Shown here: positions 27,525-45,640 of the stretch, one piece after another
How positions within the stretch are numbered: the first letter of the stretch is position 1
Layout: each line of letters starts with the position of its first letter
Source of the DNA: Acidimicrobiaceae bacterium
GTDB taxonomy: Bacteria; Actinomycetota; Acidimicrobiia; Acidimicrobiales; Bog-793
Length of the DNA stretch: 64,000 bases
Assembly: GCA_003136185.1 (NCBI GenBank)
Contig: PLDN01000108.1
Coordinates: forward strand, 7,312 to 71,311
Direction of reading: 5' to 3'
The notes under the pieces: generated by a model
The model's input: the letters and a program-made list of their open reading frames with translations, nothing else
Told to the model about the DNA's origin: nothing
The model's database searches: none
Made by a program: the position numbers and the translations under genes

Positions 27525-27561
27525 CCCGACTTCGATTCGCCCGACCGGTCCCATGATGCGG

Positions 27562-27583
27562 CTCCTTTGTGTACACAAAGGAG
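27562..27583. promoter_or_regulatory. Perfect 22-nt palindrome overlapping the Shine-Dalgarno of the Phd-like ORF
   Basis: CTCCTTTGTGTACACAAAGGAG equals its own reverse complement. It lies 38 nt after the rpsA stop. Its right arm contains AAGGAG, 7 nt before ATG 27590. Confidence 0.5.
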
Positions 27584-27589
27584 TCACAG

Positions 27590-27967
27590 ATGACTGATCT
27601 GAAGAGCGTCGGCGTGAGGGAGTTCTGGAACAATGCGAGCACGTACTTGTCCGGCTCCGAGCCTGTCGCTGTTAATCGTCATGGCAAGGTGATCGGCTTC
27701 TACATCCCGGCGGAGCGCGACGAAGACGCGAGCGAGCGTGCCCATAGCGGCATCGTCTCGGCGAGTTCATGGGTGAGCGGCGCGAGCAGGCGGACGTGCC
27801 CGTCTGAGGTCTCAATGAACTCAGCCTTGCGGAAGGTCGGCGTTCCACCATGTCGAGCACGAAGCCTTCGACTTCAGGCCGGACCGGCTCGATCAGGTCG
27901 AGCGCCATGCTTCGAGGATCGTGATTGGTCGCCAGCTCGCCACCTGGCGCTCGAAGGCTGCCGGTGA
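27590..27967 (+). CDS. Phd/YefM-type antitoxin-like ORF; only the N-terminal ~45 aa look genuine
   Basis: MTDLKSVGVREFWNNASTYLSGSEPVAVNRHGKVIGFYIPAERDED matches the antitoxin N-domain pattern (..vsvre.r.n.s..l.......v.itrhGkpva.lvp.e). After about nt 27725 the frame becomes Ser/Arg/Cys/Trp-rich and runs antisense to a better minus-strand reading. There is no partner toxin ORF downstream on this strand. Confidence 0.5.
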   Translation: MTDLKSVGVREFWNNASTYLSGSEPVAVNRHGKVIGFYIPAERDEDASERAHSGIVSASSWVSGASRRTCPSEVSMNSALRKVGVPPCRARSLRLQAGPARSGRAPCFEDRDWSPARHLALEGCR

Positions 27968-28460
27968 GATCCGTCCTTCGCCCAGCAGAACGACAAGCCC
28001 CAAGTAGCGAGCCACGCTGCGGGCTCCCCGGCGGCTGACCGTGACGTCTTCGAGGACGGAGGCTCCAGCACCGAGCTGGGCGAAGAACGTGACGACCGGG
28101 AGAACGTCGCCCGGCGCGTCGTGGCCGAGCGCTTGGCGGGCGCTGAGATCCCCGTGATGTACCAGGCGGCGCTCATACTCGGCCCGGTGGACCGCAGCCC
28201 GCTCGGCTGGAGTTTCAGCGGTGCACCGTTTCGGCTCGCCACGATGGGCGCGCGCTAAGAGCTGGGAGTCGACCTCCCGCCGGGCTGCCATCAATGCTCC
28301 TGTTTCAGGCGTGGGCCGATGTCATCGAGCCGCTTGCCGTCCAGGGACCTAGCCGCGGCGGCGATGATGCGGACGCGTACCGGCTCGCACGAGCCGCCAT
28401 CTACCGCGACCGATTTCGGAGGATCGTTCACGAGACCGGAGAGATCCTGCGCGGGCACCT
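27700..28460 (-). pseudogene. Cas1-like (CRISPR integrase/casposase family) gene, broken into at least four frame segments
   Basis: Minus-strand segments in order: EVPAQDLSGLV...ARSLDGKRLDDIGPRLKQEH* (28458-28291); MAARREVDSQLLARAH...ALGHDAPGDVLPVVTFFAQLG...VSRRGARSVARYLGLVVLL (28291 to ~27945); GGELATNHDPRSMALDLIEPVRPEVEGFVLDMVERR (27944-27837); FRKAEFIETSDGHVRLLAPLTHELAETM...* (27834-27700). By eye these match the successive conserved Cas1 blocks with roughly correct spacing. The call is from memory of Cas1 alignments, not a search. Confidence 0.4.
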
Positions 28461-29181
28461 CGGTCCAATCGACAGCTCGGAGGACGTGCTTCCGAGGATG
28501 GCCGCCGGTCCGGGCGCGGCGGTAGCTGTGCTCCTCCAGCGAACTCTCATTGAAGCTTTCACTGTGGAGCCAGCGCCCGGGCGTGATGTGCCTGCTTGAG
28601 ACTGACGTGTGCCGCTGCCACGCTCACTGGGGGACCGCCCAGCTGCGAGGCAGCTCGATGACACGGGGCGCTTCGGTGAGCTGAAGGCTGAACAAGCCGA
28701 GGCTCCACGGGTCGACGCGATCGCGGCGAGCCCGACGGTTTGCTGGACGACCGCGATCTTGAGCCATTTCACGTTGCTTTGGGTGCCATCATGTTCGCCG
28801 ACCAGGTCAGCGACGTCACGCGGCGCAAGGCCGTCGAGTTGTTGGATCGATTCCCGCTCATCGAGACCTACCGGAGTCAACTCGACCTTCTGGAGCCAGG
28901 TCACGCCTGGATCGCGGATGCTCCTGCGCGTGAGTTAGCTGCAGTGGCGCAAGCTGCGATCACGTTCGCCGAAGCAGCTTTCGCAGGCGCACTCGACGGG
29001 GACATGGTTCCTTGGCCGCTCGTGTGGGTGATGGTCGTCTGCTTTGGCCCAAGCTTCGGCTATCTCAGGACAGTTGCTCAGCTGTTCGCTGAAGCGGGGA
29101 CCCCCGCCGGCAACGATCGTCCCATGGCTCGACTCCGAGCGCCTGGCAGCATCCGACTCGTCGGCACTTGCTTAACCGCCC

Positions 29182-29212
29182 CGGCCGGTCCGGTGCGAGG
29201 GCGGACCGGCCG
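29182..29212. terminator. GC-rich stem-loop 3' of the 29226-30077 gene
   Basis: CGGCCGGTCCG-GTGCGAGGG-CGGACCGGCCG: perfect 11-bp stem and 9-nt loop, 14 nt below the stop at 29226-29228. No U-tract. Confidence 0.45.
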
Positions 29213-29225
29213 TCCGGAGCGTTGC

Positions 29226-30077
29226 TCAGCAGGTCGCGGAGTCCGGCGAGCTGCCTGGCCCGATCTCGGGATCGTCGACGATGCCCTGCGAGGTGGACCG
29301 GAGTATGGCGCCCAGGTGCACGACGTACCACTCACCTCGCCACGAGATGAGAGAGGCGATACCGAAAGAGCGGACCTGGCCGTCCTGTCGGTAGACGATG
29401 CGCGAGTTGGCGACCTCGTAGTACCCGACGCTGTTGTCGCAGACCCCGGGGGGGATCCAGTGGCCGTACTGCTCGGGAACGTTGACGACGATCAAGCTGG
29501 CCCTTCCCGCGAGCTGGCCGAGGAGGGCGTGGGCGGCCTGCAGATCGGCGGCGAAGTCGGCGAGAAGTCGATAGGTGTAGTCGGCCGCCGGGTCGGAGAG
29601 GGTCTTGAGCTGGAGGTAGGCGTTCTCGGGGAAGAAGGCCGGCCGTGCCTCGACGGGCGAGCCGGAGACCACCCCCCGCCACAAGGCGGCCATCTCCGCT
29701 TGGAACTCCGAGGATGTCGACGTCGGGAACGCGCTGGTCTGGGGCAGGCTCCCGGCATCGGTCGTCGAGGTGGCAGGCACCGTCGTCGTCGGAGGATCAG
29801 TCGTCGTGGTCACGCCAGTGGCGGACGTGGTGGTGGCAACGGTGCCGGTAGTGGACGTGGTGCTGGCAACGGTGCCGGTGGTGGTCCCACCAGCAGCCGA
29901 GAGTGGTCCCGGCGAGCCCGAGGTCAGCACGACCGCTGTTGCAGCCCCCCCGGCGACGACGAACGCAGCCACCGCGGCCGCGACAAAGCGGTTTCGGCGA
30001 ACCCGCCGACGGCGGTGCCGGCCACCTGGGCGGATGGGGGGGCCGAGCGGGGACACGGGCGGCTTTGGGGCGGTCAT
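29226..30077 (-). CDS. Membrane-anchored extracytoplasmic protein with Thr-rich linker and an unassigned ~170-aa C-terminal domain
   Basis: From ATG 30077: MTAPKPPVSPLGPPIRPGGRHRRRRVRRNRF-VAAAVAAFVVAGGAATAVVL (single TM helix), a Thr/Ser-rich linker (TTTGTVASTTSTTGTVATTTSATGVTTTTDPPTTT), then a globular domain (...ENAYLQLKTL...VNVPEQYGHWIPPGVCDNSVGYYEV...WRGEWYVVHLGAIL). ATG 30122 is an alternative start. The upstream part of the 440-aa tracked ORF is Arg/Gly junk. Confidence 0.7.
   Translation of the reverse strand: MTAPKPPVSPLGPPIRPGGRHRRRRVRRNRFVAAAVAAFVVAGGAATAVVLTSGSPGPLSAAGGTTTGTVASTTSTTGTVATTTSATGVTTTTDPPTTTVPATSTTDAGSLPQTSAFPTSTSSEFQAEMAALWRGVVSGSPVEARPAFFPENAYLQLKTLSDPAADYTYRLLADFAADLQAAHALLGQLAGRASLIVVNVPEQYGHWIPPGVCDNSVGYYEVANSRIVYRQDGQVRSFGIASLISWRGEWYVVHLGAILRSTSQGIVDDPEIGPGSSPDSATC
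29821..29880 (-). repeat. 2 x 30-nt tandem repeat encoding the Thr-rich linker
   Basis: 29821-29850 versus 29851-29880 are 27/30 identical (gcggacgtggtggtggcaacggtgccggta / gtggacgtggtgctggcaacggtgccggtg). On the minus strand they encode TGTVASTTST/TGTVATTTSA. Confidence 0.8.
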
Positions 30078-30173
30078 CGGACAGCCACCATGGTAGGGGC
30101 ATTCGGTCTGTGAGCCCGACATCGACGATGGCCGCGGGGCCGCCGGGCTGAGGGTGGTGCGTAGTCTGACGGC

Positions 30174-31292
30174 GTGCCCAGCCCTCGCTCCCAGCCTCGT
30201 CGCCGACCGTGGGCGGCGTCGGCGGTCCTGGCGAGCGCCATGGTGCTCCTCGCCTCCTGCAGCGGGGTGGGCTCGAGCGCTCACGGGCAGAGACGGTCGA
30301 ACCGGTCGACCTCGTCGTCGACGGGCGCCGGCCACGTCGCCACCACCACCTCCCGAGGCCCGACCAGCACTACCAGCACGACCACCACGACCGTCGCGAT
30401 CCCCTCCCACCTGCCGGCGCCGCGGCCGTTGACTCCCTTTGGCGCGCTCTCGGCGAGCGGCCAGGGCGTGTGGACGCCGGCAGGTCGCCGGGTCCAGGGC
30501 CTGAATGCCGTCTACGAGACGACGCTCGTCCCTGCCGGTGGCGCCCAACGCGCCGGGATCGCTTGGATGGACACGCGACTGCTTTCGGCGCGGCTCTACT
30601 CGGGCTCGATCAGCCCTGGCGGTGGCCCGTACCGCTTCACCGCCCCAGTCCTGCCCCGCCAGTCGGCATCCCTCGTCGCCGCCTTCAACGGCGGTTCCCA
30701 GATGGGCGTGGCCGGGGGCGGTTACTACACCGAGGGCCGGCTCATCGACCCGCTCGTCGCCGGAGCGGCCTCCCTCGTGATCTACTCAGACGGCTCCGTG
30801 GCCGTCGGGGCTTGGGGCAGTGACGTCGCAATGACCCCGAACGTGGTGGCGGTCCGCCAGAACCTGGTTCCCCTCGTGGCCGACGGTCGACCGACCGCGC
30901 AAGCGGCCAGCGCCGACTGGCAGTCATGGGGAGCGACGTGTGGGGCGACGTCGTGCCTCCCGACCGTGCCCGGCATCGAGCACCAGTGGCGGTCGGGCGT
31001 CGGAGTGACCGCGGACGGCGCGCTCGTCTACGTCACCGGGTCGGCGCTCGATCCCCTCCAGCTCGCTCAGCTGCTGGTCCAGGCCGGTGTGGTCCGGGGG
31101 ATGCAGCTCGACATCAATCCCTTCTGGACCGTCCTGGTGACCTACGATCCGCCCACGCCGGGTGGCAAGGCCGCACCGTCCAACGGCAGCAAGCTGCTAG
31201 GCGCGACCGAGCAGGGCCCGGCCACTTTCTTCGATCCCTTGTGGGCGCGGGACTTCGTCACCATGTCGGCGCGGTCGGCATCAACGGGCTGA
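30174..31292 (+). CDS. Lipoprotein, phosphodiester glycosidase (NAGPA/DUF2233-like) family
   Basis: Signal peptide plus lipobox AMVLLASC|SG and a Thr/Ser-rich linker. The C-terminal domain has RSGVGVTADGALVYVTGSALDPLQLAQLLVQAGVVRGMQLDINPFW, matching the family pattern R.a.G...dG.l..v...g......la.ll...G...a..LD.g. Confidence 0.75.
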   Translation: MPSPRSQPRRRPWAASAVLASAMVLLASCSGVGSSAHGQRRSNRSTSSSTGAGHVATTTSRGPTSTTSTTTTTVAIPSHLPAPRPLTPFGALSASGQGVWTPAGRRVQGLNAVYETTLVPAGGAQRAGIAWMDTRLLSARLYSGSISPGGGPYRFTAPVLPRQSASLVAAFNGGSQMGVAGGGYYTEGRLIDPLVAGAASLVIYSDGSVAVGAWGSDVAMTPNVVAVRQNLVPLVADGRPTAQAASADWQSWGATCGATSCLPTVPGIEHQWRSGVGVTADGALVYVTGSALDPLQLAQLLVQAGVVRGMQLDINPFWTVLVTYDPPTPGGKAAPSNGSKLLGATEQGPATFFDPLWARDFVTMSARSASTG

Positions 31293-31516
31293 CCGATAAA
31301 TGGCTGCGAGACGGCGGCCAGTTCATGACCACGGCAGATGCAGAGCCGGCTTCGAGTAGGTGAGGGTGACGAGGGACGGGACGACACGGTCTTGTTGTGC
31401 GGCGGCTTGGCGCCGTCGTGAGCCACGGTCGTCAGCTTGACTGTGAGGCGGTGGGTGCGCGCTACGAAGCTCCTATAGACGTCAAGTCCCGTCCGAGTGA
31501 CCCGACGGCGGTGTCC

Positions 31517-31930
31517 TCAGGCGGCCACGAGGTCGCCGACGCCAACGAGAGTTCGACCGGTGAGGACGTTGAAGACCTCACGCGCCACGTAGCGCTTCAG
31601 GCCACCTACAACAATCCGAACATCGAGCGCCTTTTCAACCTGGTGGTAGGCGGTCTGCTCGTCGAATTCGGTCAATCCTTGTTCCCGAGCTTGCCGGCAG
31701 GTTGGGGTGAGGCGGCGCTCATCGAACAGTGCAATCTCTCTGATCGGCCTCGAACACGGACGCCCGGCTGACGGCCCGCAGCCATCTGACCGGCCGGCGA
31801 AGACGCGACGCGGAACCCTGAGAAGAACGCGAAGGCAGCGACGTAGCACTCGACCGAGGAACGCTCGTCCAGGAGTCGCTCTTGCACTCGCGCTCGAAGC
31901 GGTGATCCTGACCGGAGACGGCGTCATTCC
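31517..31930 (-). mobile_element. Possible degenerate IS110-family transposase 3' remnant
   Basis: A minus frame ends ...LTEFDEQTAYHQVEKALDVRIVVGGLKRYVAREVFNVLTG...*, reminiscent of the IS110 C-terminal tail (..k.h.eAl.cLKRrla.vvy..L). A neighbouring frame reads AVSGQDHRFERECK (compare aSSG...RHRL.rgG). The reading is split across frames and there is no intact ORF. My hand-counted GC3 of ~68% is below that of the core genes. Confidence 0.3.
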
Positions 31931-32061
31931 TCGGATGTGGCTGTCCTACTTGGACGGTGCAAACGCTGCGCGACGAGCTGGCTTGCCGATGACCCGGTGT
32001 TGTGAGTCGATGTGGAACGGTGCGCTGTTCTAGAGGCTTTCTATGCCCCCTACACCTCGCC

Positions 32062-33123
32062 TCAGGTGTTCGAGTGGCCGGCGGCCGTAGCTTCTGTCGA
32101 GGCAGGAGCGCCGAGCGGGAAGTGACAGGCCACGAAGTGGTCGGTCTTGATCTCCCGCATGATGGGCTCTTGCACCCCGCAGATCTCCTGGGCTCTCGGG
32201 CAGCGCGTCCTGTAACGGCAGCCCGAAGGAGGCGTGACCGACGAAGGCATCTCCGTCTGGGTCTCCTCCTCTTCGGCAAACGTCGTGGGCTGTGCTCCGG
32301 CACGCGATAGTGCGCGCGAAGAGATGACGCTCGCCATGAGGAGAGCGCGGGTGTAGGGGTGAGCTGGAGCCGAGTAGAGGCTCTCAGCGTCTGCCACCTC
32401 GCAGACCTTGCCGAGGAACATGACGAGAACCCGGTCGCTGACGTTCTTCACGACGGCCAGGTCGTGGGAGATGAAGATCATCGTCAGCCCGTAGCGACGC
32501 TTCATATCCTCGAGGAGGTTGAGGATCTGTGCTTGCACCGATACGTCGAGGGCGGACACGGGCTCGTCGCAGATGAGCACCCTCGGGTTGAGCATGAGGG
32601 CGCGAGCGATGGAGATCCGCTGGCACTGCCCGATGGAGAACTCATAAGGACGGCGCCATGAGACTGAGTCGTAGTCCATGTTGACTTCCGACAGCATCAA
32701 GCGCGCCCGCTGGACTCGGTCTTCGGAAGAGCCGACATCCCAGATGGCGAGCGGCTCGAGAACGAGCTCAGCCACGGTCCGCCGTGGATAGAGAGAAGAG
32801 ATGGGGTCCTGGAAGATGACCTGCATCTTCGTACGGACCTGACGCATCGCCTCAGACGTGAGCCCGGTGAGGTCGACGCCCTCGAACACGACCTTGCCGC
32901 TGGTCGGCTTCGGGAGCTGGAGGAGGGCGCGGCCAGTCGTCGACTTGCCACAGCCCGACTCACCGACGATCCCGAGAGTCTCGCCGGGCAGCACGTCGAA
33001 GCTGATGTCCGACACGGCGTGAACCTTCTGACCTCGCGGGGCGGGGAACTCTACGACGAGGTGCTCGACCCGGATGATCGATTGCTCAGCGTCCCTCAGG
33101 TGCGCAGTGCCAATACCGGCCAA
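32062..33123 (-). CDS. Peptide/nickel-type ABC transporter ATP-binding protein (OppF/DppF-like)
   Basis: [55 protein letters not shown], and a C-terminal oligopeptide-ABC domain with Cys motif [16 protein letters not shown]...ACHF. TTG 33123 lies 1 nt after the upstream stop. Confidence 0.88.
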
Positions 33124-33124
33124 C

Positions 33125-34207
33125 TCAAACCACCCCCATGGCCGCGGGCACGCCGGCAGCCTGATTCTCTTCCAGTGCTCGGACGCCTTCGGGCGTCCCG
33201 ACCGGATACCAACAGGCATACCAATGACGCGGAGCCTCGGCTTGGCGCAGCGGTGGCTCCTCCTCGCGGCACTTCGGTTGTACATAAGGACAGCGCGGAG
33301 CAAAGCGGCAGCCCTTCGGCAGGTTCGCCGGGTTGGGCGGGTTGCCCGGAATCGTGTGCAAGCGGGTGTGGCTCGGATTGGACAGCCGAGGTGCCGACTT
33401 GAGCAGCGCTTCGGTGTAGGGCATGCGGGCGTCGCGGAACAGGGTCGTAGTCGGCGCGCGCTCGACGACCTGTCCGGCGTACATCACGATCACGTCGTCG
33501 GAGCGGCCTGTGACCACGCCGAGGTCGTGGGTGACGATGATGACGGACATGTAGCGCTCCTGCTGGAGGCGGTTGAGCAGGTCCAAGATCTGCGCGGAGA
33601 CCGTCACGTCGAGACCGGTCGTGGGCTCGTCGGCAAGGAGGAGCTTTGGACCACACGCGATCGCAGCAGCGATGACGATCCGCTGGCACATGCCGCCTGA
33701 GAACTGGTGCGGGTACCACTGCATGCGGTTCTCAGGTTCGGGGATGCCGACGGAGCGGAACAGCGAGATCGCAGTCTCCTTCGCGTCTTGACGGCTCATC
33801 GCGAGGTGGTACCGGAGGGACTCGGTGATCTGGCGGCCCGCACGAACCACCGGGTTCAGCGATGTCACCGGGTCCTGGAAGACCATCGAGATCTGCGCGC
33901 CCCACAAGCCCCGCAGTTCCTGCGGTGAGGCGTTCGTGAGGTCGACGTCACCGAAGCGCACGCGGCCCTCTCGGATCACGTTCTGCGGAGGCAGCAGTCC
34001 CATGACAGAGCGGGAGAGCACGGTCTTGCCGGATCCGGACTCTCCGACGATGGCGAGCGTGCGGCCCCTCTCGAGGTCGAAACTCACCCCGTCGACGGAC
34101 TTCACGATGCCGTGCCCGGTCTGGAAGTAGGTCTTCAAGTTTTCGACCTCGAGAAGGGGTCGATCCTCGAGGTCGTCGATATCTCTTACGTGACGTTTAC
34201 GGCTCAC
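33125..34207 (-). CDS. Peptide/nickel-type ABC transporter ATP-binding protein (OppD/DppD-like)
   Basis: GESGSGKTVLSRSVMGLLP, VFQDPVTSLNP, FSGGMCQRIVIAAAI, LLADEPTTGLD, and C-terminal GCRFAPRCPYVQPKC...ACWYP. Confidence 0.9.
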   Translation of the reverse strand: MSRKRHVRDIDDLEDRPLLEVENLKTYFQTGHGIVKSVDGVSFDLERGRTLAIVGESGSGKTVLSRSVMGLLPPQNVIREGRVRFGDVDLTNASPQELRGLWGAQISMVFQDPVTSLNPVVRAGRQITESLRYHLAMSRQDAKETAISLFRSVGIPEPENRMQWYPHQFSGGMCQRIVIAAAIACGPKLLLADEPTTGLDVTVSAQILDLLNRLQQERYMSVIIVTHDLGVVTGRSDDVIVMYAGQVVERAPTTTLFRDARMPYTEALLKSAPRLSNPSHTRLHTIPGNPPNPANLPKGCRFAPRCPYVQPKCREEEPPLRQAEAPRHWYACWYPVGTPEGVRALEENQAAGVPAAMGVV

Positions 34208-35190
34208 AGCACGCCTTCCCGAACGTCGAGGGTGGACCGCAGGCGGTCACCGATGAAGTTGATCGCGAGGATGAACGAGAACATCGCGACGGCGGGCGCC
34301 AGCAACAGGTTCAGGTACTGGGGCATCTGAGTCATGCCGGCAGCAATCATGTTGCCCCACGTCGGGATCGGAGGGCCGACCGACTGTCCGAGGAACGACA
34401 GGGCGCCCTCTCCGACGATCGCGAGCGCTACTCCGACGAGGCTGTAGGTGATCGCGGCGGGAACGATGTCGGGCAGGATGATCTTCAACAGGATCCGGCT
34501 TCGTTTGGATCCGAGCGCTTGTGCAGCGAGGACGTACTCGCGTTGGCTGTACTCGATGGTGGCTGCGCGCACGACCCTGAAGAGCAATGGCCACGCCACG
34601 ATGGCGATGATGAGGACGATGTCGAATTCGGAGTTCCCAAGGAAGGACACGATCACGAGGCCGAGAACGAGCGACGGGAAGGACAAGAACACCGTCGAGA
34701 CGATGCTCCACACCTCGTCGAACCATCCCCCGAAGTAACCGGCGAGCGCTCCGAGCGGGCCGCCGACCACGAAGGAGAGTGCAATCGACGCGAACCCGAC
34801 GATGAGCGAGACTCGAGAGCCGTAGATCACGCGGGACAATATGTCGCGGCCGATCGTGTCGCAGCCGAGAAGATGACTGGCGCTCGGGCCCGCGCCGGAG
34901 CCGAGGCAGTTGAAGTTGATCGTGTCTGGGTTCTGGATCGGCAACACGCCGGCGAAGATCGCGAGAAGCACCCAGATCACTGCCACGGCGACGGCAACCC
35001 AGAAGCCCCATCCAAGGCCTTGGTACCAGGCACGACCCACGGCAACGCTGTCGTCGCGGAGCGTTGGATCGGAAGCGAATATTGCAGCGCCGAGTGTCGC
35101 GGGCATCTCGAAGGGCGCCTCCGAGGTGAGATCCGTTAGGCCAAGGAGGTCCTTCGACGCGTGTGAGTCGGGATCATGTAGTTCTGGCAC
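34204..35190 (-). CDS. ABC transporter permease (OppC/DppC-like)
   Basis: HLLGCDTIGRDILSRVIYGSRVSL and the EAA-type loop AAQALGSKRSRILLKIILPD. The stop overlaps the oppD-like start by 4 nt. Confidence 0.88.
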   Translation of the reverse strand: MPELHDPDSHASKDLLGLTDLTSEAPFEMPATLGAAIFASDPTLRDDSVAVGRAWYQGLGWGFWVAVAVAVIWVLLAIFAGVLPIQNPDTINFNCLGSGAGPSASHLLGCDTIGRDILSRVIYGSRVSLIVGFASIALSFVVGGPLGALAGYFGGWFDEVWSIVSTVFLSFPSLVLGLVIVSFLGNSEFDIVLIIAIVAWPLLFRVVRAATIEYSQREYVLAAQALGSKRSRILLKIILPDIVPAAITYSLVGVALAIVGEGALSFLGQSVGPPIPTWGNMIAAGMTQMPQYLNLLLAPAVAMFSFILAINFIGDRLRSTLDVREGVL

Positions 35191-36133
35191 GGCGCACCCT
35201 TGGATCGATGACTGTGTACAGGAAATCGATGATCAAGTTCATCAAGATGTAAGCGACGGCCACGATGACCGTGATGATCTGGACCGTCGGCAGGTCGGCC
35301 TTCGTGACGGCGAGGACCAGCTGGTAGCCCAGACCGGTCAGTCCGAAGACCTGCTCCCCGATGATGGCTCCCACGATGAGCGACCCAATCTGGACGCCCC
35401 CGACGGTCATGACCGTGAAGGTCGAAGGCCGGAGGGCGTGGCGGAACAGGATCCTCCACGTCGTGAGCCCCTTCGCACGGGCCATGACGATGAAGTCCTC
35501 TTCGAGAGTGGCGATCATATCGGCGCGCAGTAGGCGCTGATAGACAGCGATCGACCCGACAGCGATCGTGAGCGACGGTAGGAACATCACGTAGAGGTTC
35601 TGAGCCGGGTTGACGCCAATCGACGGCATCGTGGATCCGGCTCCCGGGAACCAGGGCAGCTTGACCGTGAAGAAGTAGCGGAGCAGTGGTCCGACGATGA
35701 AAGCCGGCAGCGACAAAGTCGCGAAGGTTGCGGCCGTCGACATGCGGTCGAAAACTTTGTTAGGTCGCACTGCGCTGTACATAGCGAGCGGAACCGCCAC
35801 CACGATAGCGATGAGTTGGCTGAAGATTACGAGCTCGAGCGTGATCGGATACGACTGCTTGAGAAGCGTCGCAATCGGTTCCGTGGGTGCGGCGGAGAGC
35901 CCGAAGGTGCCGGAGAAGAGATTTCCGAGCCAGTGCAAGTAGCGCGGGAAGAAGGGGTGGTTCAAATAGAGAAGCGCACCTTCCTTCGCCAGACATGCTG
36001 GCCCGGCAGGCCCACAGATCACGGCGGCTTCGTTGCCGGGCAGTTTCGAAGTGAAGAAGAACGTAACGAGCGTCACGAGGACCAGCGTGACGATGATTTC
36101 GAGGACGCGCCGAACAACGACGAGCTTGGACAA
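35174..36133 (-). CDS. ABC transporter permease (OppB/DppB-like)
   Basis: N-terminal VVRRVLEIIVTLVLVTLVTFF and the EAA loop DFIVMARAKGLTTWRILFRHALRPS. 319 aa. Confidence 0.88.
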   Translation of the reverse strand: MSKLVVVRRVLEIIVTLVLVTLVTFFFTSKLPGNEAAVICGPAGPACLAKEGALLYLNHPFFPRYLHWLGNLFSGTFGLSAAPTEPIATLLKQSYPITLELVIFSQLIAIVVAVPLAMYSAVRPNKVFDRMSTAATFATLSLPAFIVGPLLRYFFTVKLPWFPGAGSTMPSIGVNPAQNLYVMFLPSLTIAVGSIAVYQRLLRADMIATLEEDFIVMARAKGLTTWRILFRHALRPSTFTVMTVGGVQIGSLIVGAIIGEQVFGLTGLGYQLVLAVTKADLPTVQIITVIVAVAYILMNLIIDFLYTVIDPRVRRARTT

Positions 36134-36277
36134 CAGAACCCCCTTTCAGCTTGCCGATGCTACTTCTTGAGCGCCGGTTCGTGCATTTCGTTGCCTTCCT
36201 CCCGAGATGGCGCTGGAATCATCTCGATTTGCCCGCGTTCTAGCGCCGTTGCTCGGCCTTTCAGGTACTACTGCTTA

Positions 36278-37975: not shown

Positions 37976-38007
37976 GTCTTCCCCTCCCTTGGAATGTGAC
38001 AGTGATA

Positions 38008-38021
38008 TTACGCGCGCGTAA
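38008..38021. promoter_or_regulatory. 14-nt perfect palindrome in the divergent opp / GT-C promoter region
   Basis: TTACGCGCGCGTAA (alternating CG core), in the locally AT-richer 143-nt gap between start codons 37975 (-) and 38119 (+). Confidence 0.35.
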
Positions 38022-38118
38022 CTGATAGCGGGGGACCAATCGACGATTTCGTGACCTAAGTAACACACGGCGTGCGTGACCTGGCCATTCGCTGGGGGCG
38101 GAGCGGTACGATCCCCGG

Positions 38119-39720
38119 GTGCATCCGGACGAACCGCTCGCGAGCCCGGCCCGCGCCTCTTCCAAACTCCTGAAGGCCGCGGTTTGCGCGGTTCTCGTAG
38201 GGGCGGTTGCGCTGCGGTTCTTGACGAAGTCGCCCCTTTGGCTGGACGAGGCGCTCACGGTGAACATCTCCAAGGCGCCTCTCTCCCAGATCCCAGGTCT
38301 GCTCAAAGATGACGGGGCGCCCCCGCTCTACTACTTCCTTTTGCACTTTTGGATGAAGGCGTTCGGAACTGGTGACGTCGCGACGCGCTCACTCGCCGGA
38401 GTGATCGGCGTCATCAATCTTCCGATCGCTTGGCTGACCGGCTACCGCGTCGGCTCGCGATGGTGGTTGCTCGAGGAGGCTCCTCCCGAGGAACGGAAAG
38501 CTCGTGAGGCACGCGGACGTGTGACGGCCTGGTCGGTGACGCTGCTGCTCGCGAGCTCGCCTTTCGCCGTCTACTACGACACCGAAGCCCGCATGTACGG
38601 CCTGGTCCTGCTCCTCGGCACTCTCGGCGTGCTCGTGATCACGTCTCTCCTGCGTCACCCGACCTGGAGAGGTTCGCTAGCCCTTGGGGTTGTTGCGGCT
38701 GGCCTTTTGTACAGCCACTACTGGGCTCTCTACGTCTGTCTCGTGACCGGGGCGGGAGCGGTTTGGTGCGCGTGGCGAGGGCCTCACGTCAAGTCGGCCC
38801 GCTACGCCTTGGCGGGATTCGTGCTCGCGGCTGTGGCGTGGCTTCCGTGGGTACCCACATTCTTGTACCAGGTGCGGCATACCGGGACTCCTTGGGCGGC
38901 GCCCGCCGGGGCGTCGGTCATCATCTTCACTGTCACCCAGTTCGCTGGTGGCGCTTCGGCCGCCGGCAGGGCTCTCGCGCTCGTGTTCTTCTTCCTCGCC
39001 CTGCTCGCCATCTTCGGGAAGGCATACGACCGGTACCACGTGCTCTTGGATCTGCGTTCCCGACCGGGCGTGAGGGCGCTCGCTGTAACGATGATCGCGA
39101 CGCTCGTCGTTGCCATCATCGCCGGCAAGCTCTCGGGCAGCACGTTCGCAGACCGCTACACCTCGGTAATCGCCTTTCCGGCGCTGCTTGTCTTCGCATA
39201 CGGGGTGACGACACTCGAGGACCGGCGCGTCCGGACCGGCGTGCTTGCGGTCGCGGTGGCGTTGGGACTCGCCGCCTCTATCCCGAACGCGACGATTCTC
39301 CGAACCGAGGCGGGTCAGGTCGCCGCCGCGATCACGGCCGACGCCCACCCGGGAGATGTGGTGGCGTACTGCCCGGACCAGCTCGGACCGTCGGTGAGTC
39401 GCCTGCTCGGAAATGGCTACAAACAGATCACATTTCCGCGCGCTACCTCGCCGCAGATCGTCGACTGGGTCGACTACATCTCGACCGTCCAGCACGCCAG
39501 CACCTTCCGGTTCGCTCACCTTGTCGACCGGCTGTCCGGCAATCACACGATTTGGTACGTCACCGCGCCGGCTTACCAGGGTTTTGGCAACGACTGCCAA
39601 GACATCCTGATCGACCTCGCCGCGAACCACGCCGAACACAACGTCGTGGCGAGTGCCCCGGCCGACACGCCCTTCGAGATCTACGAAGGCATCTCGCTTG
39701 ACCGGTTCACGCCGCGGTGA
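38119..39720 (+). CDS. GT-C fold glycosyltransferase, ArnT/PMT (family 39/83)-like
   Basis: About 12 predicted TM helices. The first-loop motif reads SPLWLDEALTVNIS ... DDGAPPLYYFLLHFWMKAFG (PMT_2-like), followed by a C-terminal soluble domain of ~150 aa. Confidence 0.75.
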   Translation: MHPDEPLASPARASSKLLKAAVCAVLVGAVALRFLTKSPLWLDEALTVNISKAPLSQIPGLLKDDGAPPLYYFLLHFWMKAFGTGDVATRSLAGVIGVINLPIAWLTGYRVGSRWWLLEEAPPEERKAREARGRVTAWSVTLLLASSPFAVYYDTEARMYGLVLLLGTLGVLVITSLLRHPTWRGSLALGVVAAGLLYSHYWALYVCLVTGAGAVWCAWRGPHVKSARYALAGFVLAAVAWLPWVPTFLYQVRHTGTPWAAPAGASVIIFTVTQFAGGASAAGRALALVFFFLALLAIFGKAYDRYHVLLDLRSRPGVRALAVTMIATLVVAIIAGKLSGSTFADRYTSVIAFPALLVFAYGVTTLEDRRVRTGVLAVAVALGLAASIPNATILRTEAGQVAAAITADAHPGDVVAYCPDQLGPSVSRLLGNGYKQITFPRATSPQIVDWVDYISTVQHASTFRFAHLVDRLSGNHTIWYVTAPAYQGFGNDCQDILIDLAANHAEHNVVASAPADTPFEIYEGISLDRFTPR

Positions 39721-40880
39721 GCTCGTACGCCGGCACACGCAGGGGGGTCGCCGTCATCGAATCGGTGCGCGCTTCCGTCCTGCCTTTCTGTGTGTCGCGG
39801 GCGATCGTCCTCGCCGCCCTTGGGATAGCACGGTTCCTCGTCGACCAACTTGGGCCCTCGCTCAGGAGTGCAACAGGCGCGAAGGCGATCGGGACCAGCC
39901 ACTCCGGCCTGCTCTCGTGGGACGCCGCGTGGTACCTGCGCATCGCGGAAGTGGGGTACGGAGGAGCGGGGAAACAGGCGCTGCGTTTCTTTCCGTTGTT
40001 CCCGTTGCTCGGACGGCTGGTCGGGTCACTGCCCGGGATCTCCTATGGCACCGCACTGGTCGTGCTTGCAAACGTGTTCGGGTTCGGGGCGCTCGTCCTC
40101 CTGCACGCACTCGTATCTCGCGAGTCGCTCGGGCACGAGACGGCGGAACGGTCGATCTGGATCCTCTCGCTCTGGCCGGCTGCGTTCGTCCTCGTGATGG
40201 GCTACGCCGAGTCCCTGTTGCTTTGCCTCACGATCGCTGCTTTCTTGTGCTGGCGGACGGGCCGCTGGTGGTGGTCGATCGTGCCGGCGTACTTCGCCGG
40301 CCTCTGCAGACCAGTCGGCGTCCTGCTGGCGCTCCCGGCTCTCGTAGAGGCGGTCAGCTGGTGGCGCTCGAGTGGCCATCGCTCGCTCGGTTCGGCGTCG
40401 AGCCGTTTGCTGGCGATCGCGGCGGCACCAGCCGGCATGGTGACCTACCTTGCCTGGTCGGCGGCGACGCACGGCAGCTTCTTCGAACCACTGAGCGAGC
40501 AGACCTCCCGTCTCCATCGTGGCGGGATCAGCGACCCGATAGCGACCTTGCTGCACGACACGAGCGACCTCGTGCACGGCCACCATCTCGGAACCGCCCT
40601 TCACGCCCCGTTTGCAGCTCTGTTCGTCATCCTCACCATCTACCTCTTCTTCAGGCTGCCGGCGGCGTACGGCCTATATGCCGCAGCCACGATGGCCGTA
40701 GCGCTCACCGCTCCCAACCTCGACTCGCTCGAGCGCTACGGCCTTGCCTGCTTCCCACTTGCCATCGCGGCGGGGTGCCTGACGGAGCGCCCAATGGTGC
40801 AGCGAGTGGTGCTGAGCGGCATGGGTGCCCTCCTCACCGCGTACGCGCTCCTTGCCTTCCTCGGGTTGTACGTCCCTTGA
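39717..40880 (+). CDS. Polytopic mannosyltransferase-like membrane protein (PIG-V / Mannosyl_trans2-like)
   Basis: GTG overlaps the upstream stop (GTGA). Signature SGLLSWDAAWYLRIAEVGYGG...ALRFFPLFPLLGR, followed by ~8 TM helices. Confidence 0.65.
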   Translation: MSSYAGTRRGVAVIESVRASVLPFCVSRAIVLAALGIARFLVDQLGPSLRSATGAKAIGTSHSGLLSWDAAWYLRIAEVGYGGAGKQALRFFPLFPLLGRLVGSLPGISYGTALVVLANVFGFGALVLLHALVSRESLGHETAERSIWILSLWPAAFVLVMGYAESLLLCLTIAAFLCWRTGRWWWSIVPAYFAGLCRPVGVLLALPALVEAVSWWRSSGHRSLGSASSRLLAIAAAPAGMVTYLAWSAATHGSFFEPLSEQTSRLHRGGISDPIATLLHDTSDLVHGHHLGTALHAPFAALFVILTIYLFFRLPAAYGLYAAATMAVALTAPNLDSLERYGLACFPLAIAAGCLTERPMVQRVVLSGMGALLTAYALLAFLGLYVP

Positions 40881-40925
40881 CCCGCAACGTCGATGAACCG
40901 CGGAGCGAGCGTGAAGTGAAAGAAT

Positions 40926-42431
40926 GTGGTCATGGCAGCGGCTTCTGACGACTCGCGCGCGCCCGAGAACGTCGTTGTAATCGGCGCCGGCCCGGCGGGC
41001 CTTACCGCTGCGTACGCTCTCGGTCGCCGGGGCGGCCACTGCATCGTCGTTGAGGCGGACACGGTCGTTGGTGGAATCTCGCGTACAGCCGAGCGGGAGG
41101 GATGGCGGTTCGACATCGGCGGGCACCGTTTCTTCACCAAGGTCCGCGAGGTCGAGGAGCTGTGGCACGAGATCCTCGGACCGGAGGATTTCCTCCTCCG
41201 TCCGCGCCTCAGCCGGATATACCACGACGGGAAGTTCTTCGACTACCCGATCCAGCTCGGGAACGCGGTGAAGGGACTCGGTCTGGTCGAGTCGTTCAAG
41301 TGCGGGGTCTCGTACGTCTGGGTCCGCATCAAGCGTCCGAAGAACACCGACACCTTCGAGGGATGGGTCGCGTCCAGGTTCGGTTGGCGGCTCTACAACA
41401 AGTTCTTCAAGACCTACACCGAGAAGGTCTGGGGAGTCCCTGCGACGGAGATCCAGGCTGACTGGGCGGCGCAGCGGATCAAGAACCTCTCCCTCTGGAA
41501 GGCCGTGTTGAACGCGGTAACCCCGCACAAGAAGACGAACGTCACGTCGCTCATCGAGGAGTTCGAGTACCCGAAGCTCGGTCCAGGGATGATGTGGGAG
41601 CGCGCTACCGAGCTCGTGCTCGACCAGGGCTCGGAGGTCCGGATGTCAACGTGGGTGACGCGTATCCGGCGGGAGCCCGGCCGGGCGGTCGCGGTCGACC
41701 TCGAGTCACCTGGCGGTGTCTGCTCGGAGCTTCCGGTCGATCACGTTGTCTCGTCCATGCCCCTCGCCGAGCTCGCCCTCATCCTCGACCCGCCGGCGCC
41801 GGAGGACGTCCAGCAAGCCGCCAAGGGCCTCCACTTCCGGGACTTCCTGACGGTCGCGCTCGTAGTGCCGAAGGACCGGGGCTTTCCCGACAACTGGATC
41901 TACGTGCACGACAAAGTGAAGCTCGGTCGCATTCAGAACTTCGGTTCGTGGTCACCGGAGATGGTGAAGGACGGACGGACCTGCCTCGGTCTCGAGTACT
42001 TCGTCTTCGAAGGCGACGAACTGTGGACGATGGAGGACCAAGATCTGGTCGCTCTCGGCAAACGCGAGCTCTCCGCTATCGGGCTCGTGCGCGAAGAAGA
42101 CGTCGAGATGGGCTTCGTCGTGCGGATGCCGAAGGCGTACCCGGTCTACGACGAGGGCTACGCCACACGCGTCGAGACGATCCGCGGCTTCCTCGCGGAC
42201 GAGGTGCCGAACGTACACCCGGTGGGGCGTAACGGGATGCACCGTTACAACAACCAGGACCACTCGATGCTCACAGCGCTGCTCACCGTCGAGAACCTGT
42301 TCGGTGAGGACTACGACACCTGGTCGGTCAACGTCGAAGCGGATTATCACGAAGAGCAGGTAGGGCGAAAGGGAGAAGCGCAGAGGGTGGGCACTGGGCG
42401 CTCGGCCCCGGTGGCGCCAACCAAGGCGTGA
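40926..42431 (+). CDS. FAD-dependent oxidoreductase (amine-oxidase / UDP-galactopyranose-mutase-like fold)
   Basis: Dinucleotide motif VVVIGAGPAGLTAAYAL...VVEADTVVGG, IGGHRFFTK, and C-terminal HPVGRNGMHRYNNQDHSMLTAL. Confidence 0.75.
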   Translation: MVMAAASDDSRAPENVVVIGAGPAGLTAAYALGRRGGHCIVVEADTVVGGISRTAEREGWRFDIGGHRFFTKVREVEELWHEILGPEDFLLRPRLSRIYHDGKFFDYPIQLGNAVKGLGLVESFKCGVSYVWVRIKRPKNTDTFEGWVASRFGWRLYNKFFKTYTEKVWGVPATEIQADWAAQRIKNLSLWKAVLNAVTPHKKTNVTSLIEEFEYPKLGPGMMWERATELVLDQGSEVRMSTWVTRIRREPGRAVAVDLESPGGVCSELPVDHVVSSMPLAELALILDPPAPEDVQQAAKGLHFRDFLTVALVVPKDRGFPDNWIYVHDKVKLGRIQNFGSWSPEMVKDGRTCLGLEYFVFEGDELWTMEDQDLVALGKRELSAIGLVREEDVEMGFVVRMPKAYPVYDEGYATRVETIRGFLADEVPNVHPVGRNGMHRYNNQDHSMLTALLTVENLFGEDYDTWSVNVEADYHEEQVGRKGEAQRVGTGRSAPVAPTKA

Positions 42432-43621
42432 GCACTCCGGACCTACAAACAGCCGCGGCCCTTGCCGAGGAGGCCGGGCTCCGCCGTGTGGCGATGATCG
42501 CCTGGCGGGATCTCGGTGACGCAGAGGCCGGCGGATCGGAGCTCCACGCTCACGAGATTGCTCGCCGGTGGGCACAGGCAGGCATCGAGGTGGTCATGCG
42601 AACCTCGTCGGTCGCAGGCGAGCCAGAGCGGCTAGAGCGCGACGGCTATACGGCCGTGCGAAGATCCGGTCGGTATCAGGTCTTCGGGACGGGTCCCTAC
42701 GACATCGTGCGCGGTCGGCTCGGCGCGCTCGACGGGCTGGTCGAGATCTGGAACGGGATGCCGTTCTTCAGCCCGGTCTGGGGGCGCTTCGGCGTACCGC
42801 TCCCGCGAGTCACGTGGCTGCACCACGTCCACGCCGAGATGTGGCAGATGGTGCTCGGCCCGCGGCTCGCCGCCATCGGCGACACGATCGAGTCGAAGAT
42901 CGCGCCTCGCATCTACAGGCGCACCCGCATCGTGACGCTGTCGGAGTCCTCTCGCTGCGAGATCGTCGCGATGCTCGGCATGAGGCCGAGCCGGGTGAGT
43001 GTCGTACAGCCTGGGATCGACCCGAGCTACTCGCCCGGCTCAGAGAAGAGCCCGACACCTCTTATCGTCGCAGTGGGGCGCCTCGTGCCGGTCAAGCGCT
43101 TCGATCGGCTGATCAGGGGAGTGGCCGACATGCACGAGCGCCGCAGCGACGTCGAATGCCTGATCGTCGGGGAGGGAGCCGAGCGAGATGGCCTCGAGAG
43201 GCTCCGCCACGAGCTCGGCGCCGACTCCTACATCCATCTCCCCGGCCGCTTGGCCTCGGCCGACCTGGTCGACTCCTACAGGCGGGCCTGGGTGGTTGCG
43301 TCCACGTCGGTGCGAGAGGGCTGGGGGATGACGGTCAGCGAAGCCGCCGCGTGTGGCACGCCCGCTGTCGCGAGCCGAATCGCGGGGCACCGCGATGTCG
43401 TGATCGAGGGCCAGACTGGGTTCCTTGCGAGCACCCGGGCCGAGATGGTGAGGCATCTCGAGGCGATCGTCTCGGACGAGGGCCTCCGTGAGAGGCTGGC
43501 GAAGGCAGCCCTCGATCGTGCCGCCGACCTGAGCTGGGAAGCGACGGCCGCTGGCACGCTCACTACGCTCGTCGACGAAGCGACACGGGTCGGGTCAGGT
43601 TGGCAACGAACACGGAGATGA
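42428..43621 (+). CDS. Glycosyltransferase family 4 (GT-B)
   Basis: GTGA overlap with the upstream stop. VGRLVPVKRFDRLI, GEGAERDGLERL, and the E-x7-E region REGWGMTVSEAAACGTPAVAS. Confidence 0.85.
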   Translation: MSTPDLQTAAALAEEAGLRRVAMIAWRDLGDAEAGGSELHAHEIARRWAQAGIEVVMRTSSVAGEPERLERDGYTAVRRSGRYQVFGTGPYDIVRGRLGALDGLVEIWNGMPFFSPVWGRFGVPLPRVTWLHHVHAEMWQMVLGPRLAAIGDTIESKIAPRIYRRTRIVTLSESSRCEIVAMLGMRPSRVSVVQPGIDPSYSPGSEKSPTPLIVAVGRLVPVKRFDRLIRGVADMHERRSDVECLIVGEGAERDGLERLRHELGADSYIHLPGRLASADLVDSYRRAWVVASTSVREGWGMTVSEAAACGTPAVASRIAGHRDVVIEGQTGFLASTRAEMVRHLEAIVSDEGLRERLAKAALDRAADLSWEATAAGTLTTLVDEATRVGSGWQRTRR

Positions 43622-45639
43622 GTGTCAGAGGGCGGCACCTTCCCGGCCTCGACGGGGTCCGCGCTCTCGCGATCGGTGGAGTCTTCGCGTACCACCTCGG
43701 CTTCGGCTGGGCCTCGGGCGGCTATCTAGGCGTCGACCTCTTCTTCGTGCTGTCCGGGTTCCTCATCTCGAGCCTGCTCGTGGAGGAGTGGCTGGAGAAG
43801 TCGACGATTGGTCTGGCGGCGTTCTGGGGACGCCGTGCGCGCCGCCTGCTTCCTGGACTGCTGTTGATGCTGGCCGTCCTCGGGGTGTTCCTCCTCGCGT
43901 TCGGCCCCGGGCCGCTCGTCGATCTTCGCGAGGTGCGCGACGACGCGCTCGCCACAGTGCTGTATGTGGCGAACTGGCATCAGCTCTTTGCGCACCAGTC
44001 CTACTTCGACCAATACGCGGCGCCTTCGCCTCTCCAGCACACGTGGTCGCTCGGGATCGAGGAGCAGTTCTACGTCGTCTGGCCGCTCGTGATGCTCGGC
44101 CTGCTCTCGCTTGGTCGTGGGAGGTGGCGCGCCGTCGGCTTGGCCGTCGCCGGCGCAGGAGCCGCTGCGTCGGCCGGGTGGATGGCCTTCTTGGCGGCAC
44201 ACGGCGCGTCGGTCAACCGCCTGTACTACGGCTCCGACACGCGCGCGTTCGACCTGTTGATCGGCGCCTTGCTCGCATTCGCGGTTGCGGGCCGTGCGCA
44301 GCCGGGCGAGCGTTCCCGGCGCCTCCTCTCGGTCGCCGCACCGGCCGCCCTCGTCGGCCTCGGCCTGTTCTGGTGGCGTGCGGGGAGCCTCGCGGGTGCA
44401 AACGGGCGACACATGTTCGAGTGGGGCTTCCTGCTTTGCGCGTGCGCGGCGGCGGTCATCCTCGCAGACGTCCGCCAGGAGACACTCTCGCCGCTCGGGA
44501 AGATACTGGCGATCCGGCCGCTCCAGTTCATCGGGCAGATCTCTTATGAGCTGTACCTATGGCACTGGCCAGTCATTTGTGAGTTGACATCTGCGAGGCT
44601 CGGCATCAGCGGCCTCCTCCTCGATCTCGTGCAGGTGGCAGTGGCTCTGACACTGGCGGTGGTGAGCTTCTTCCTCGTCGACCGGCCGCTCCGCAGGTGG
44701 TCCTTCCAGGGCTGGCCGAGACCGGTCCGGGTGCTGACCGCACCGGTTGGGATGGTTGCCGCTGCGGTGGTCATGGTGATCGCGACGGTTCCCGGCCCGA
44801 TCGTGAAGGCCCCGGTCGTGAAGGACGTGAAGACGAGGGGCCCGGGAATACCGGGCGCCGGCAACATGGTCGGAGGACCTATCCACCTGGCTGAGACCCC
44901 CACGCGGGCGCACCCGTTGCGCATCATCTTGTTCGGGGACTCGGTCATGCGCGGCGACGCCCCCGCCATCACGGCCGCGCTGCAATCGACCGGGGTGGTC
45001 CAGGTGGTCGACGCGGGCTTCGACGCCTGGGGTTTCACGACGGACAAGAGCTGGCGACAGAACGTGCCCAGCCAGATCCGAGCTCACCACGCCCAGCTCG
45101 TGATCGCGATGTGGAGCTGGGACGACGACTTCCTTGTGGGCCACTCCGCCGAATACCGGAGTTGGATGAAGCAGTTCGTGCGCATAGTGACGGACCAGGT
45201 CGGCGTCGACGGCCTCATCTTTCAAGAGTTCCCGCAAATTGGACCACCGAGCAGCGACATCCCCATCAACGCGTGGAACGAGCTCGTCGCCTCGATCGTC
45301 TCGGTCGCCCCTGGAAAGGTCATGTACCTTCCGCTCGGGGCTTCGGTCGAGCGAGAGGGCCATTTCGAGTCCTGGCTCCCGACCGGCGATGACTGGAAGC
45401 TCCCGACAGACGACTGGGTGCGCGTCCGGTCGGTCGACTCTGTGCACTTCTGCCCGCCCGGCGCTGCTCGCTATGCCGCCGCGCTGGTATCTGACCTGAC
45501 GGCGATGTACCACTTGCCGAAGACGGCGCCGGGTTGGTCGTCGGCCTCGTGGACGCAGGGACCCGACTATGAGCAACCGCCGGGGAACTGCCCGGACGAT
45601 CACCCGCCCGACGCGGCGGCGGTTAGCGTACGCGGCTGA
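43618..45639 (+). CDS. Acyltransferase-3 (OafA-type) membrane domain fused to a C-terminal SGNH hydrolase-like domain
   Basis: ATGA overlap with the upstream stop. LPGLDGVRALAIGGVFAYHLG...GYLGVDLFFVLSGFLIS and about 10 TM helices. The extracytoplasmic part carries the block-I-like RIILFGDSVMRGD. Confidence 0.85.
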   Translation: MSVRGRHLPGLDGVRALAIGGVFAYHLGFGWASGGYLGVDLFFVLSGFLISSLLVEEWLEKSTIGLAAFWGRRARRLLPGLLLMLAVLGVFLLAFGPGPLVDLREVRDDALATVLYVANWHQLFAHQSYFDQYAAPSPLQHTWSLGIEEQFYVVWPLVMLGLLSLGRGRWRAVGLAVAGAGAAASAGWMAFLAAHGASVNRLYYGSDTRAFDLLIGALLAFAVAGRAQPGERSRRLLSVAAPAALVGLGLFWWRAGSLAGANGRHMFEWGFLLCACAAAVILADVRQETLSPLGKILAIRPLQFIGQISYELYLWHWPVICELTSARLGISGLLLDLVQVAVALTLAVVSFFLVDRPLRRWSFQGWPRPVRVLTAPVGMVAAAVVMVIATVPGPIVKAPVVKDVKTRGPGIPGAGNMVGGPIHLAETPTRAHPLRIILFGDSVMRGDAPAITAALQSTGVVQVVDAGFDAWGFTTDKSWRQNVPSQIRAHHAQLVIAMWSWDDDFLVGHSAEYRSWMKQFVRIVTDQVGVDGLIFQEFPQIGPPSSDIPINAWNELVASIVSVAPGKVMYLPLGASVEREGHFESWLPTGDDWKLPTDDWVRVRSVDSVHFCPPGAARYAAALVSDLTAMYHLPKTAPGWSSASWTQGPDYEQPPGNCPDDHPPDAAAVSVRG

Positions 45640-45640
45640 C

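Follow-up and report, generated by a model that had tools for sequence, protein, structure and literature searches.

Probable long residence of an opp importer and an envelope glycan cluster, beside a small variable segment, between rpsA and coaE in an Acidimicrobiaceae bacterium

Content of the rpsA-coaE interval

The 64-kb stretch of Acidimicrobiaceae DNA analysed here (the window) is a core chromosomal stretch of high GC content (~0.66) from an Acidimicrobiales-type genome, and its core genes include pheST, fab genes, an energy-coupling factor (ECF) transporter, an ANTAR regulator, polA, rpsA, coaE, uvrB, uvrA, nadA, uvrC, rapZ and gap. The subject of this study is the interval between rpsA (25971-27524, + strand; four Pfam S1 domains) and coaE (45641-46261, + strand; PF01121, E 1.4e-60; GTG start, VIAIGLTGGIGSGKS), which an earlier reading made from the letters of the DNA (the sequence-only reading) had interpreted as a horizontally acquired mosaic insertion of about 18 kb into a polA-rpsA-coaE-uvrB neighbourhood. 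The outer neighbourhood is present as described, with polA upstream of rpsA and DUF1707, uvrB and uvrA genes downstream of coaE, and the interval measures 18,116 bp (rpsA stop at 27524, coaE GTG at 45641). It contains a 4.5-kb left segment next to rpsA, an importer operon and a glycan cluster.

An Opp/Dpp-type ATP-binding cassette (ABC) importer operon, assigned with Pfam, occupies 32062-38068 on the - strand and is convergent with rpsA. All five components of the importer that had been read on this strand were found, namely oppF (32062-33123), oppD (33125-34207), oppC (34204-35190), oppB (35174-36133) and the gene of the substrate-binding protein, oppA (36278-37975/38068). The Opp/Dpp (PepT-type) set is therefore complete, with two ATPases carrying oligo_HPY, two BPD_transp_1 permeases and one cluster-C substrate-binding protein (SBP_bac_5); in NCBIfam, the models that come nearest to the latter describe nickel and peptide binders, and every one of them scores far under its cut-off, so that no substrate is called.

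The envelope glycan cluster gl1-gl5 (38119-45639, + strand), delimited with Pfam, NCBIfam and conserved synteny, has the five genes previously proposed. The product of gl1 (38119-39720) has at least 8 transmembrane (TM)-like segments and a 'PLWLDE' first loop, from which a glycosyltransferase (GT)-C-like protein is suggested, while a comparison with PDB sequences gave spurious antibody matches only. The remaining genes encode a PIG-V-like GT-C (gl2, 39717-40880), a UDP-galactopyranose mutase (UGM)-like flavoenzyme (gl3, 40926-42431) whose nearest PDB relatives are eukaryote-type UDP-galactopyranose mutases (N-terminal half, E 2e-23), a GT4 glycosyltransferase (gl4, 42428-43621) and an Acyl_transf_3 + DUF459 protein (gl5, 43600-45639), for which a metagenome scan recovered relatives at 49% identity or less only. 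The gl5 stop codon and the coaE GTG are separated by 1 nt (TGA-c-GTG) and not by the 2-nt gap previously reported, and this spacing suggests that the opp operon and the gl cluster are probably co-transcribed with coaE. As a separate observation, NCBIfam places gl3 in its PRK07208 'hypothetical protein' equivalog (750 bits), a very widespread and uncharacterised actinobacterial flavoenzyme.

Arrangement of the interval in relatives

Loci for comparison were obtained from an rpsA scan of 185,579 species-representative genomes, which gave 80 loci (best identity 86%), and nearer relatives (designated L162, L164, L182 and L183) were found by a gl3 protein search and their contigs fetched. It had been claimed that rpsA and coaE are commonly adjacent; this stood insofar as coaE lay 600 bp or less from rpsA in 25 of the 51 loci in which it was found, while the interval proved to be often expanded in the class, with coaE 1-10 kb away in the other 26 and absent within 10 kb in 17 further loci. 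Adjacency is widespread, and plausibly the ancestral state, at a junction that is often expanded, and because tight adjacency is widespread elsewhere the interval in the window is regarded as an expanded one.

It was observed that L162 (GCA_052143955.1; gl3 90% identical) is colinear with positions 32058-51990 of the window, with 79% nucleotide identity over 20 kb, in the order rpsA-oppFDCBA-gl1-5-coaE-DUF1707-uvrB-uvrA; its rpsA-oppF spacer is 38 bp and its gl5/coaE spacing is also 1 nt. L182 (gl3 82%) and L183 (gl3 80%) have the order rpsA-oppFDCBA-gl1-5-coaE with rpsA-oppF spacers of 27 and 183 bp, respectively, and L164 (gl3 85%) has the same order from oppF onward without gl5, its gl4 and coaE overlapping by 4 nt. 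Protein identity to L162 was 72-93% for the opp genes, 71-90% for the gl genes and 82-93% for the flanking core genes. Identity to L164 was lower in step (opp 64-87%, gl 65-85%, coaE/uvrB/uvrA 75-88%, DUF1707 only 47%), and identity to L001, in which few genes were seen, was lower again (gl1-4 51-64%, polA 63%, rpsA 86%). The sequence-only reading had allowed that the case for an insertion would fail if close relatives carried the same content with host-like composition. Because the identities run in step with those of the flanks, and GC content at third codon positions (GC3) and codon bias are host-like, this is what was found for 32062-45640, in L162, L182 and L183 and, minus gl5, in L164. 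The horizontal 18-kb insertion originally claimed is thereby reduced to 27525-32061 (4,537 bp), the only lineage-specific part.

Among more distant, family-level relatives, orthologues of the opp genes were present in the same position in L002, L004, L007, L009, L011 and L040-47, as in L162, L164, L182 and L183. The first five of these have rpsA, a variable 1-5 kb, oppFDCB(A) and then gl1-gl3; L040-47 have rpsA, oppFDCB, then coaE and uvrB (opp only); and L001 and L013 have gl1-gl4 directly after rpsA with no opp genes. The opp genes and the glycan genes thus each occur without the other in some relatives and together in others, which agrees with the stepwise accretion that had been proposed. 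In a neighbour-joining (NJ) tree of rpsA the window grouped with the opp+gl, gl-only and opp-only loci, and bootstrap values of 100% were obtained both for the window with L001 and for the opp-only group.

The spacer between rpsA and oppF varies far more than the genes to its right. It is 27-183 bp in L162, L182 and L183, 65-148 bp in L040-44 and 4.5 kb in the window. A spacer of 0.7-5.3 kb, filled with unrelated genes, is seen in L047, L011, L002, L009, L007 and L004; these genes include those of LrgAB-like membrane proteins, a MarR regulator, an ATP-grasp enzyme, secreted repeat proteins and a glyoxalase (names read from translations of open reading frames (ORFs), with no family scan). No homologue of the 4.5-kb segment was present at the rpsA-oppF site in any of the 80 rpsA loci of other species. 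Within the window species the exact rpsA occurs in 23 contigs from many samples, of which 10 were fetched; each matches the window at 99.5-100% identity and has the same 4.5-kb segment, and 7 of these 10 reach past oppF and span rpsA to oppA, the sole gap being an N-run in L170.

Within oppF, at 32340-32450, three conspecific assemblies terminate and a fourth contains an N-gap, with a small cluster of single-nucleotide polymorphisms (SNPs) adjoining the breaks, for which strain microdiversity or collapse with paralogous ABC ATPase genes are the probable causes. The breaks were also considered as the edge of a strain-variable island, and this was rejected, as they lie 300-400 bp inside oppF and not at the segment boundary.

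At the right-hand end of the interval, Acyl_transf_3 genes recur beside coaE in other Acidimicrobiia (L084, L136, L141-L143, L128), where they are found in the space separating rpsA from coaE, in divergent orientation to coaE, or on its downstream side. In L182 (GCA_054611255.1) a gene for a 1,495-aa AftD-like GT-C (PF11847; L182:14726-19213) lies on the opposite strand between gl5 and coaE, a further lineage-specific insertion at the right-hand junction; its presence is a hint that the product of the cluster could be an envelope polymer of arabinan- or galactan-like type.

The lineage-specific left segment

The left end of the segment carries two relics, both of which had been recognised in the sequence-only reading. 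The truncated antitoxin (27590-27742, + strand) is the N-terminal, DNA-binding half of a Phd/YefM-type protein, found by tblastn against plasmids (E 2e-10 to 6e-5) with matches annotated as 'prevent-host-death' antitoxins, and 24 of 48 residues (50%) are identical to an 81-aa antitoxin preceding a PIN gene on Chroococcidiopsis pCHRO.01. The homology ends at residue 48-51 and the ORF (GC3 0.68) extends to 27967 with a non-homologous tail; no match to the Pfam PF02604 profile was reported, and Pfam and PADLOC searches gave no similarity to PIN or any other toxin downstream. The locus thus resembles Phd/YefM-PIN (VapC-type) modules in its antitoxin domain, but the toxin-binding C-terminal part and the toxin gene are missing, making it a relic and not a working module. 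A 32-nt palindrome (27557-27588) forms an inverted repeat overlapping the Shine-Dalgarno sequence of the relic, and is possibly its former operator.

Abutting the antitoxin relic tail to tail is the Cas1-like pseudogene, a relic of the C-terminal helical domain (27736-27920, - strand; PF01867) with one frameshift at 27837. The uncorrected sequence scored 11.9 bits (E 0.12), while joining the two frames, which meet exactly at 27837, gave 25.5 bits (E 9e-6) over profile positions 227-270 of 283, above the Pfam cut-off of 22.3 bits; the frameshift correction was chosen by the analyst, so this is good but not blind evidence. Cas1 models of PADLOC (15) and of NCBIfam (6) also matched the joined peptide, again at the corresponding place in the protein. 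The recognisable part amounts to only ~60 aa: no similarity to the Cas1 N-terminal domain or a full-length ORF was found upstream of 27920 (Pfam, PADLOC, NCBIfam), there was no trace of cas2 beside the relic, and no CRISPR array was found in the window with Tandem Repeats Finder (TRF) or a repeat finder.

The two Thr-rich envelope proteins that had been predicted are both present, encoded by intact, divergently arranged genes between two stretches of orphan DNA. ThrA (29226-30095, - strand; GC3 0.84) is membrane-anchored, with one TM-like segment, a Thr-rich linker and a C-terminal domain of ~170 aa of no assigned function, for which a single-sequence AlphaFold2 model was unusable (mean predicted local distance difference test score, pLDDT, 37). 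Its neighbour (30174-31292, + strand, with the gene callers' start at 30240; GC3 0.87) encodes a protein with a lipoprotein-like signal, a Thr-rich linker and a NAGPA (phosphodiester glycosidase) domain (PF09992, E 2.3e-5, 25.1 bits against a cut-off of 25). When tblastx output was filtered at >45 bits, the unfiltered output being noise, these two genes were the only part of the left segment to give matches. NAGPA-like homologues at 65-83% identity are widespread in Acidimicrobiales; in L179, another genome of the order, one forms a divergent pair with a ThrA homologue (64% identical) among unrelated neighbouring genes, and in L176 one stands without a ThrA partner beside a VapBC module. Because the homologues are widespread in the order and the pair occurs elsewhere in L179, ThrA/NAGPA is a lineage-typical module that changes its chromosomal place and not exotic DNA.

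Orphan DNA makes up a further ~2 kb, in one stretch of weak coding signal at 27921-29225 (called ORFs 27893-28291, - strand, and 28294-28599, + strand) and another at 31293-32061. Neither had a match to a Pfam, NCBIfam or PADLOC family, nor a tblastx match in 2.4 Mb of related loci, and an Rfam and promoter/terminator scan of 27.4-32.2 kb detected nothing. The ORFs of the first stretch (GC3 0.68-0.76) fall into protein clusters of 1-2 members confined to the window species, and this stretch is probably decayed or non-functional DNA; those of the second have a GC3 of 0.65-0.71. The conspecific contigs differ by only 6 SNPs in 27.5-31.5 kb, too few for a selection test on the orphan ORFs.

The second stretch includes what had been called an IS110-like scrap (31517-31927, - strand), for which no transposase similarity was obtained in any search: PF01548 (DEDD_Tnp_IS110) and PF02371 (Transposase_20) did not match at E up to 10, there was no NCBIfam, PADLOC or plasmid tblastn match, and phmmer against 1.84 billion representatives returned only a self fragment and two repeat proteins. 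The sole phmmer match that was neither self nor of low complexity was P0253, a protein of 827 aa with tandem ~66-aa repeats (AADAAIIVGAVK..RAAF.TVSAQD..RLDEI).

With respect to composition, low GC3 (0.65-0.76) is confined to the relic and orphan ORFs. The opp and gl genes have a GC3 of 0.80-0.85, and together with ThrA and NAGPA they show GC3 of 0.80-0.87 and codon bias of 0.18-0.32, like the core genes. The low GC3 ascribed to the left 4.5 kb as a whole therefore applies to its relics and orphan ORFs and not to its two intact genes, which are at or above host level. Of the frame-broken genes and mobile-element debris described there, decayed defence-type genes were confirmed, namely the antitoxin and Cas1 relics. 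The direct repeats and integrase whose presence had been proposed as a check were found neither at the boundaries nor in the 64-kb window: Pfam on all major ORFs of the window gave no integrase or site-specific recombinase, and the only boundary-spanning repeat was a 15-nt match with one mismatch inside rpsA and oppF (D12). No tRNA lies at an edge of the segment, the sole tRNA of the window being at 15859-15942, and no terminator-like site was found to mark the segment edges.

Origin of the interval and related systems

The interval is, with good probability, an ancient, vertically inherited opp and glycan expansion between rpsA and coaE, to which a small variable islet of 4.5 kb has been added at the rpsA|oppF boundary. 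It would then consist of three units of very different age. The opp operon, convergent with rpsA, and the gl cluster, reading into coaE, would be old residents of a stable chromosome, passed on vertically within an Acidimicrobiaceae-level clade, and the convergent rpsA|oppF spacer would be a permissive, integrase-independent and fast-turning slot. In this slot the window species would have accumulated the antitoxin and Cas1 relics, the ~2 kb of orphan DNA and the intact ThrA/NAGPA module, most likely through recombination, either illegitimate or homologous, at a terminator zone in which inserted DNA would do no damage.

Several results weigh against this account. The direction of the 4.5-kb event, as a gain here or a loss in the relatives, is set by parsimony only, and a repeat search found no recombination scars. 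The clade uniting all opp- and gl-bearing loci received only 46% NJ bootstrap in a tree built from the single marker rpsA, and nearly all of the comparison genomes are metagenome-assembled genomes (MAGs). L003, which is sister to L002/L004 (100% bootstrap), has a bare rpsA-coaE-uvrB junction with no opp or glycan genes (L003:11404-12487), to be explained by the clean removal of ~15 kb or by a mis-join in the MAG. Finally, the k-mer profile that had been suggested as a check placed the top tetranucleotide deviation of the window over oppC/B/A (34-39 kb, z 2.8-3.6) and not over the left end. These genes have an overall GC of 0.60 and a first-position GC of 0.53-0.62 with normal GC3, and they are colinear in the relatives; the peak may thus reflect amino-acid composition and not recent transfer.

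That same peak, together with the defence-gene relics at the left end and the adjacency of rpsA and coaE elsewhere, would be expected if the whole 18 kb were a horizontally acquired mosaic island splitting the two genes in this genome or its recent ancestors. Such an origin is nonetheless very improbable, as 13.6 kb of it runs colinear in L162 and L164 with a similar degree of divergence, its gene order is kept in L182 and L183, L162 retains the gl5-coaE junction, codon usage is host-like, and integrase, edge tRNA and flanking repeats are all absent. If the opp operon and the glycan cluster had instead been captured independently by the same hotspot in several lineages, one could account for the weak bootstrap of the uniting clade, for the many Acidimicrobiia whose interval has grown by other content (17 loci with no coaE within 10 kb and 26 with coaE at 1-10 kb), and for the recurrence, in varying orientation, of Acyl_transf_3 genes near coaE. 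The relatives are, however, identical in gene order, orientation and junctions and identities fall in step with those of the flanking genes, and parallel capture is considered distinctly improbable.

For the 4.5-kb segment itself, an ancestral presence followed by deletion in the L162, L182 and L183 lineages is an unlikely alternative, although it stands somewhat better than the two foregoing ones: the heavy decay of the Cas1 and antitoxin relics implies long residence, and clean losses are known at the locus, as in L003 (all content) and in L001 and L013 (opp). Against it are the short spacers (27-183 bp) of three separate relatives, the absence of a homologue from all 80 rpsA loci of other species (0/80), the unrelated genes that fill the slot in other relatives, and the location of a ThrA/NAGPA module elsewhere in L179. 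An assembly or binning artefact, either of the segment or of the whole arrangement, is scarcely credible. Most of the comparison data are MAG contigs and four conspecific assemblies break inside oppF near 32.36-32.45 kb, yet these breaks are 300-400 bp inside the gene and away from the segment edge, and the 10 contigs fetched out of the 23 with this exact rpsA agree at 99.5-100%, although they derive from independent samples and assemblers.

Beyond the inherited expansion with a variable islet, a broader and speculative proposal, to which we give only a low probability, sees the rpsA|coaE boundary as a place where genes may be captured without an integrase throughout the class Acidimicrobiia. 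Envelope-glycan genes (GT-C, Acyl_transf_3, AftD-like) would have been drawn in on repeated occasions, with transcriptional fusion to coaE, and the abutting Cas1 and Phd relics would be what is left of a mobile or defence element of the solo-Cas1 kind to which the convergent rpsA|oppF terminator zone formerly served as a site.

Chromosomal hotspots of gene turnover between conserved core genes have been described (Oliveira, Touchon, Cury & Rocha 2017, Nat Commun 8:841; PMC5635113), and the rpsA|oppF slot matches this known pattern and, as a case of ordinary genome plasticity, is not surprising. What it shares with those hotspots is a position flanked by a pair of conserved genes (rpsA with oppF or, across the class, rpsA with coaE) and accessory content that is unrelated from one relative to another, with no recognisable mobile element and with defence-gene debris. 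It differs in being small (0.03-5.3 kb), in having content that is fixed within the species, and in being seen here across species of MAGs only and not in a pangenome. The resemblance to genomic islands of the integrase/tRNA kind is limited to a lineage-specific block, lower GC3 in parts and a toxin-antitoxin relic; integrase, edge tRNA and direct repeats are lacking and the cargo genes have host codon usage, while absence from close relatives was found for 27525-32061 only, and not for 32062-45640.

The glycan cluster is similar to actinobacterial loci for furanose-containing envelope glycans, which carry UDP-galactopyranose mutase, GT-C transferases and O-acyltransferases such as SucT, in its UGM-like flavoenzyme, two GT-C-like membrane proteins, GT4 and Acyl_transf_3+DUF459 protein, with the AftD-like GT-C adjoining in L182. 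All of its matches, however, fall far below the equivalog cut-offs (SucT, 119 against 1275 bits; UGM TIGR00031, 34.9 against 303.75).

In Mycobacterium tuberculosis H37Rv the map of Rv1629-Rv1633 is polA-rpsA-coaE-(Rv1632c)-uvrB. The outer order polA-rpsA...coaE-small gene-uvrB-uvrA is retained in the window, whereas between rpsA and coaE the Acidimicrobiales clade has 13.6 kb of conserved opp and glycan genes plus the variable slot. The present analysis serves chiefly as a correction: seen against Mycobacterium only, an arrangement conserved across a clade can pass for a newly acquired 18-kb island, and it takes near relatives to show that the true lineage-specific event covers 4.5 kb. In addition, the analysis draws attention to an envelope-glycan cluster, conserved but uncharacterised, that is linked to coaE in uncultured soil/peat Acidimicrobiales, and identifies the rpsA-coaE interval as a recurrently remodelled site in the class; neither the cluster nor the remodelling opens a long-standing question.

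Two further features were observed on the rpsA side of the interval. The acidic C-terminal tail of rpsA contains a 30-nt tandem repeat (27384-27486, 3.4 copies; TRF) and is wholly unlike that of L162, the nearest other species, which marks it as a hypervariable, fast-evolving low-complexity extension of S1. Just upstream of polA, and antisense to it, is a gene for a DtxR/IdeR-like regulator with Fe_dep_repr_C and FeoA domains (22306-22842, - strand), which overlaps the longest polA ORF and was taken from a conspecific gene call.

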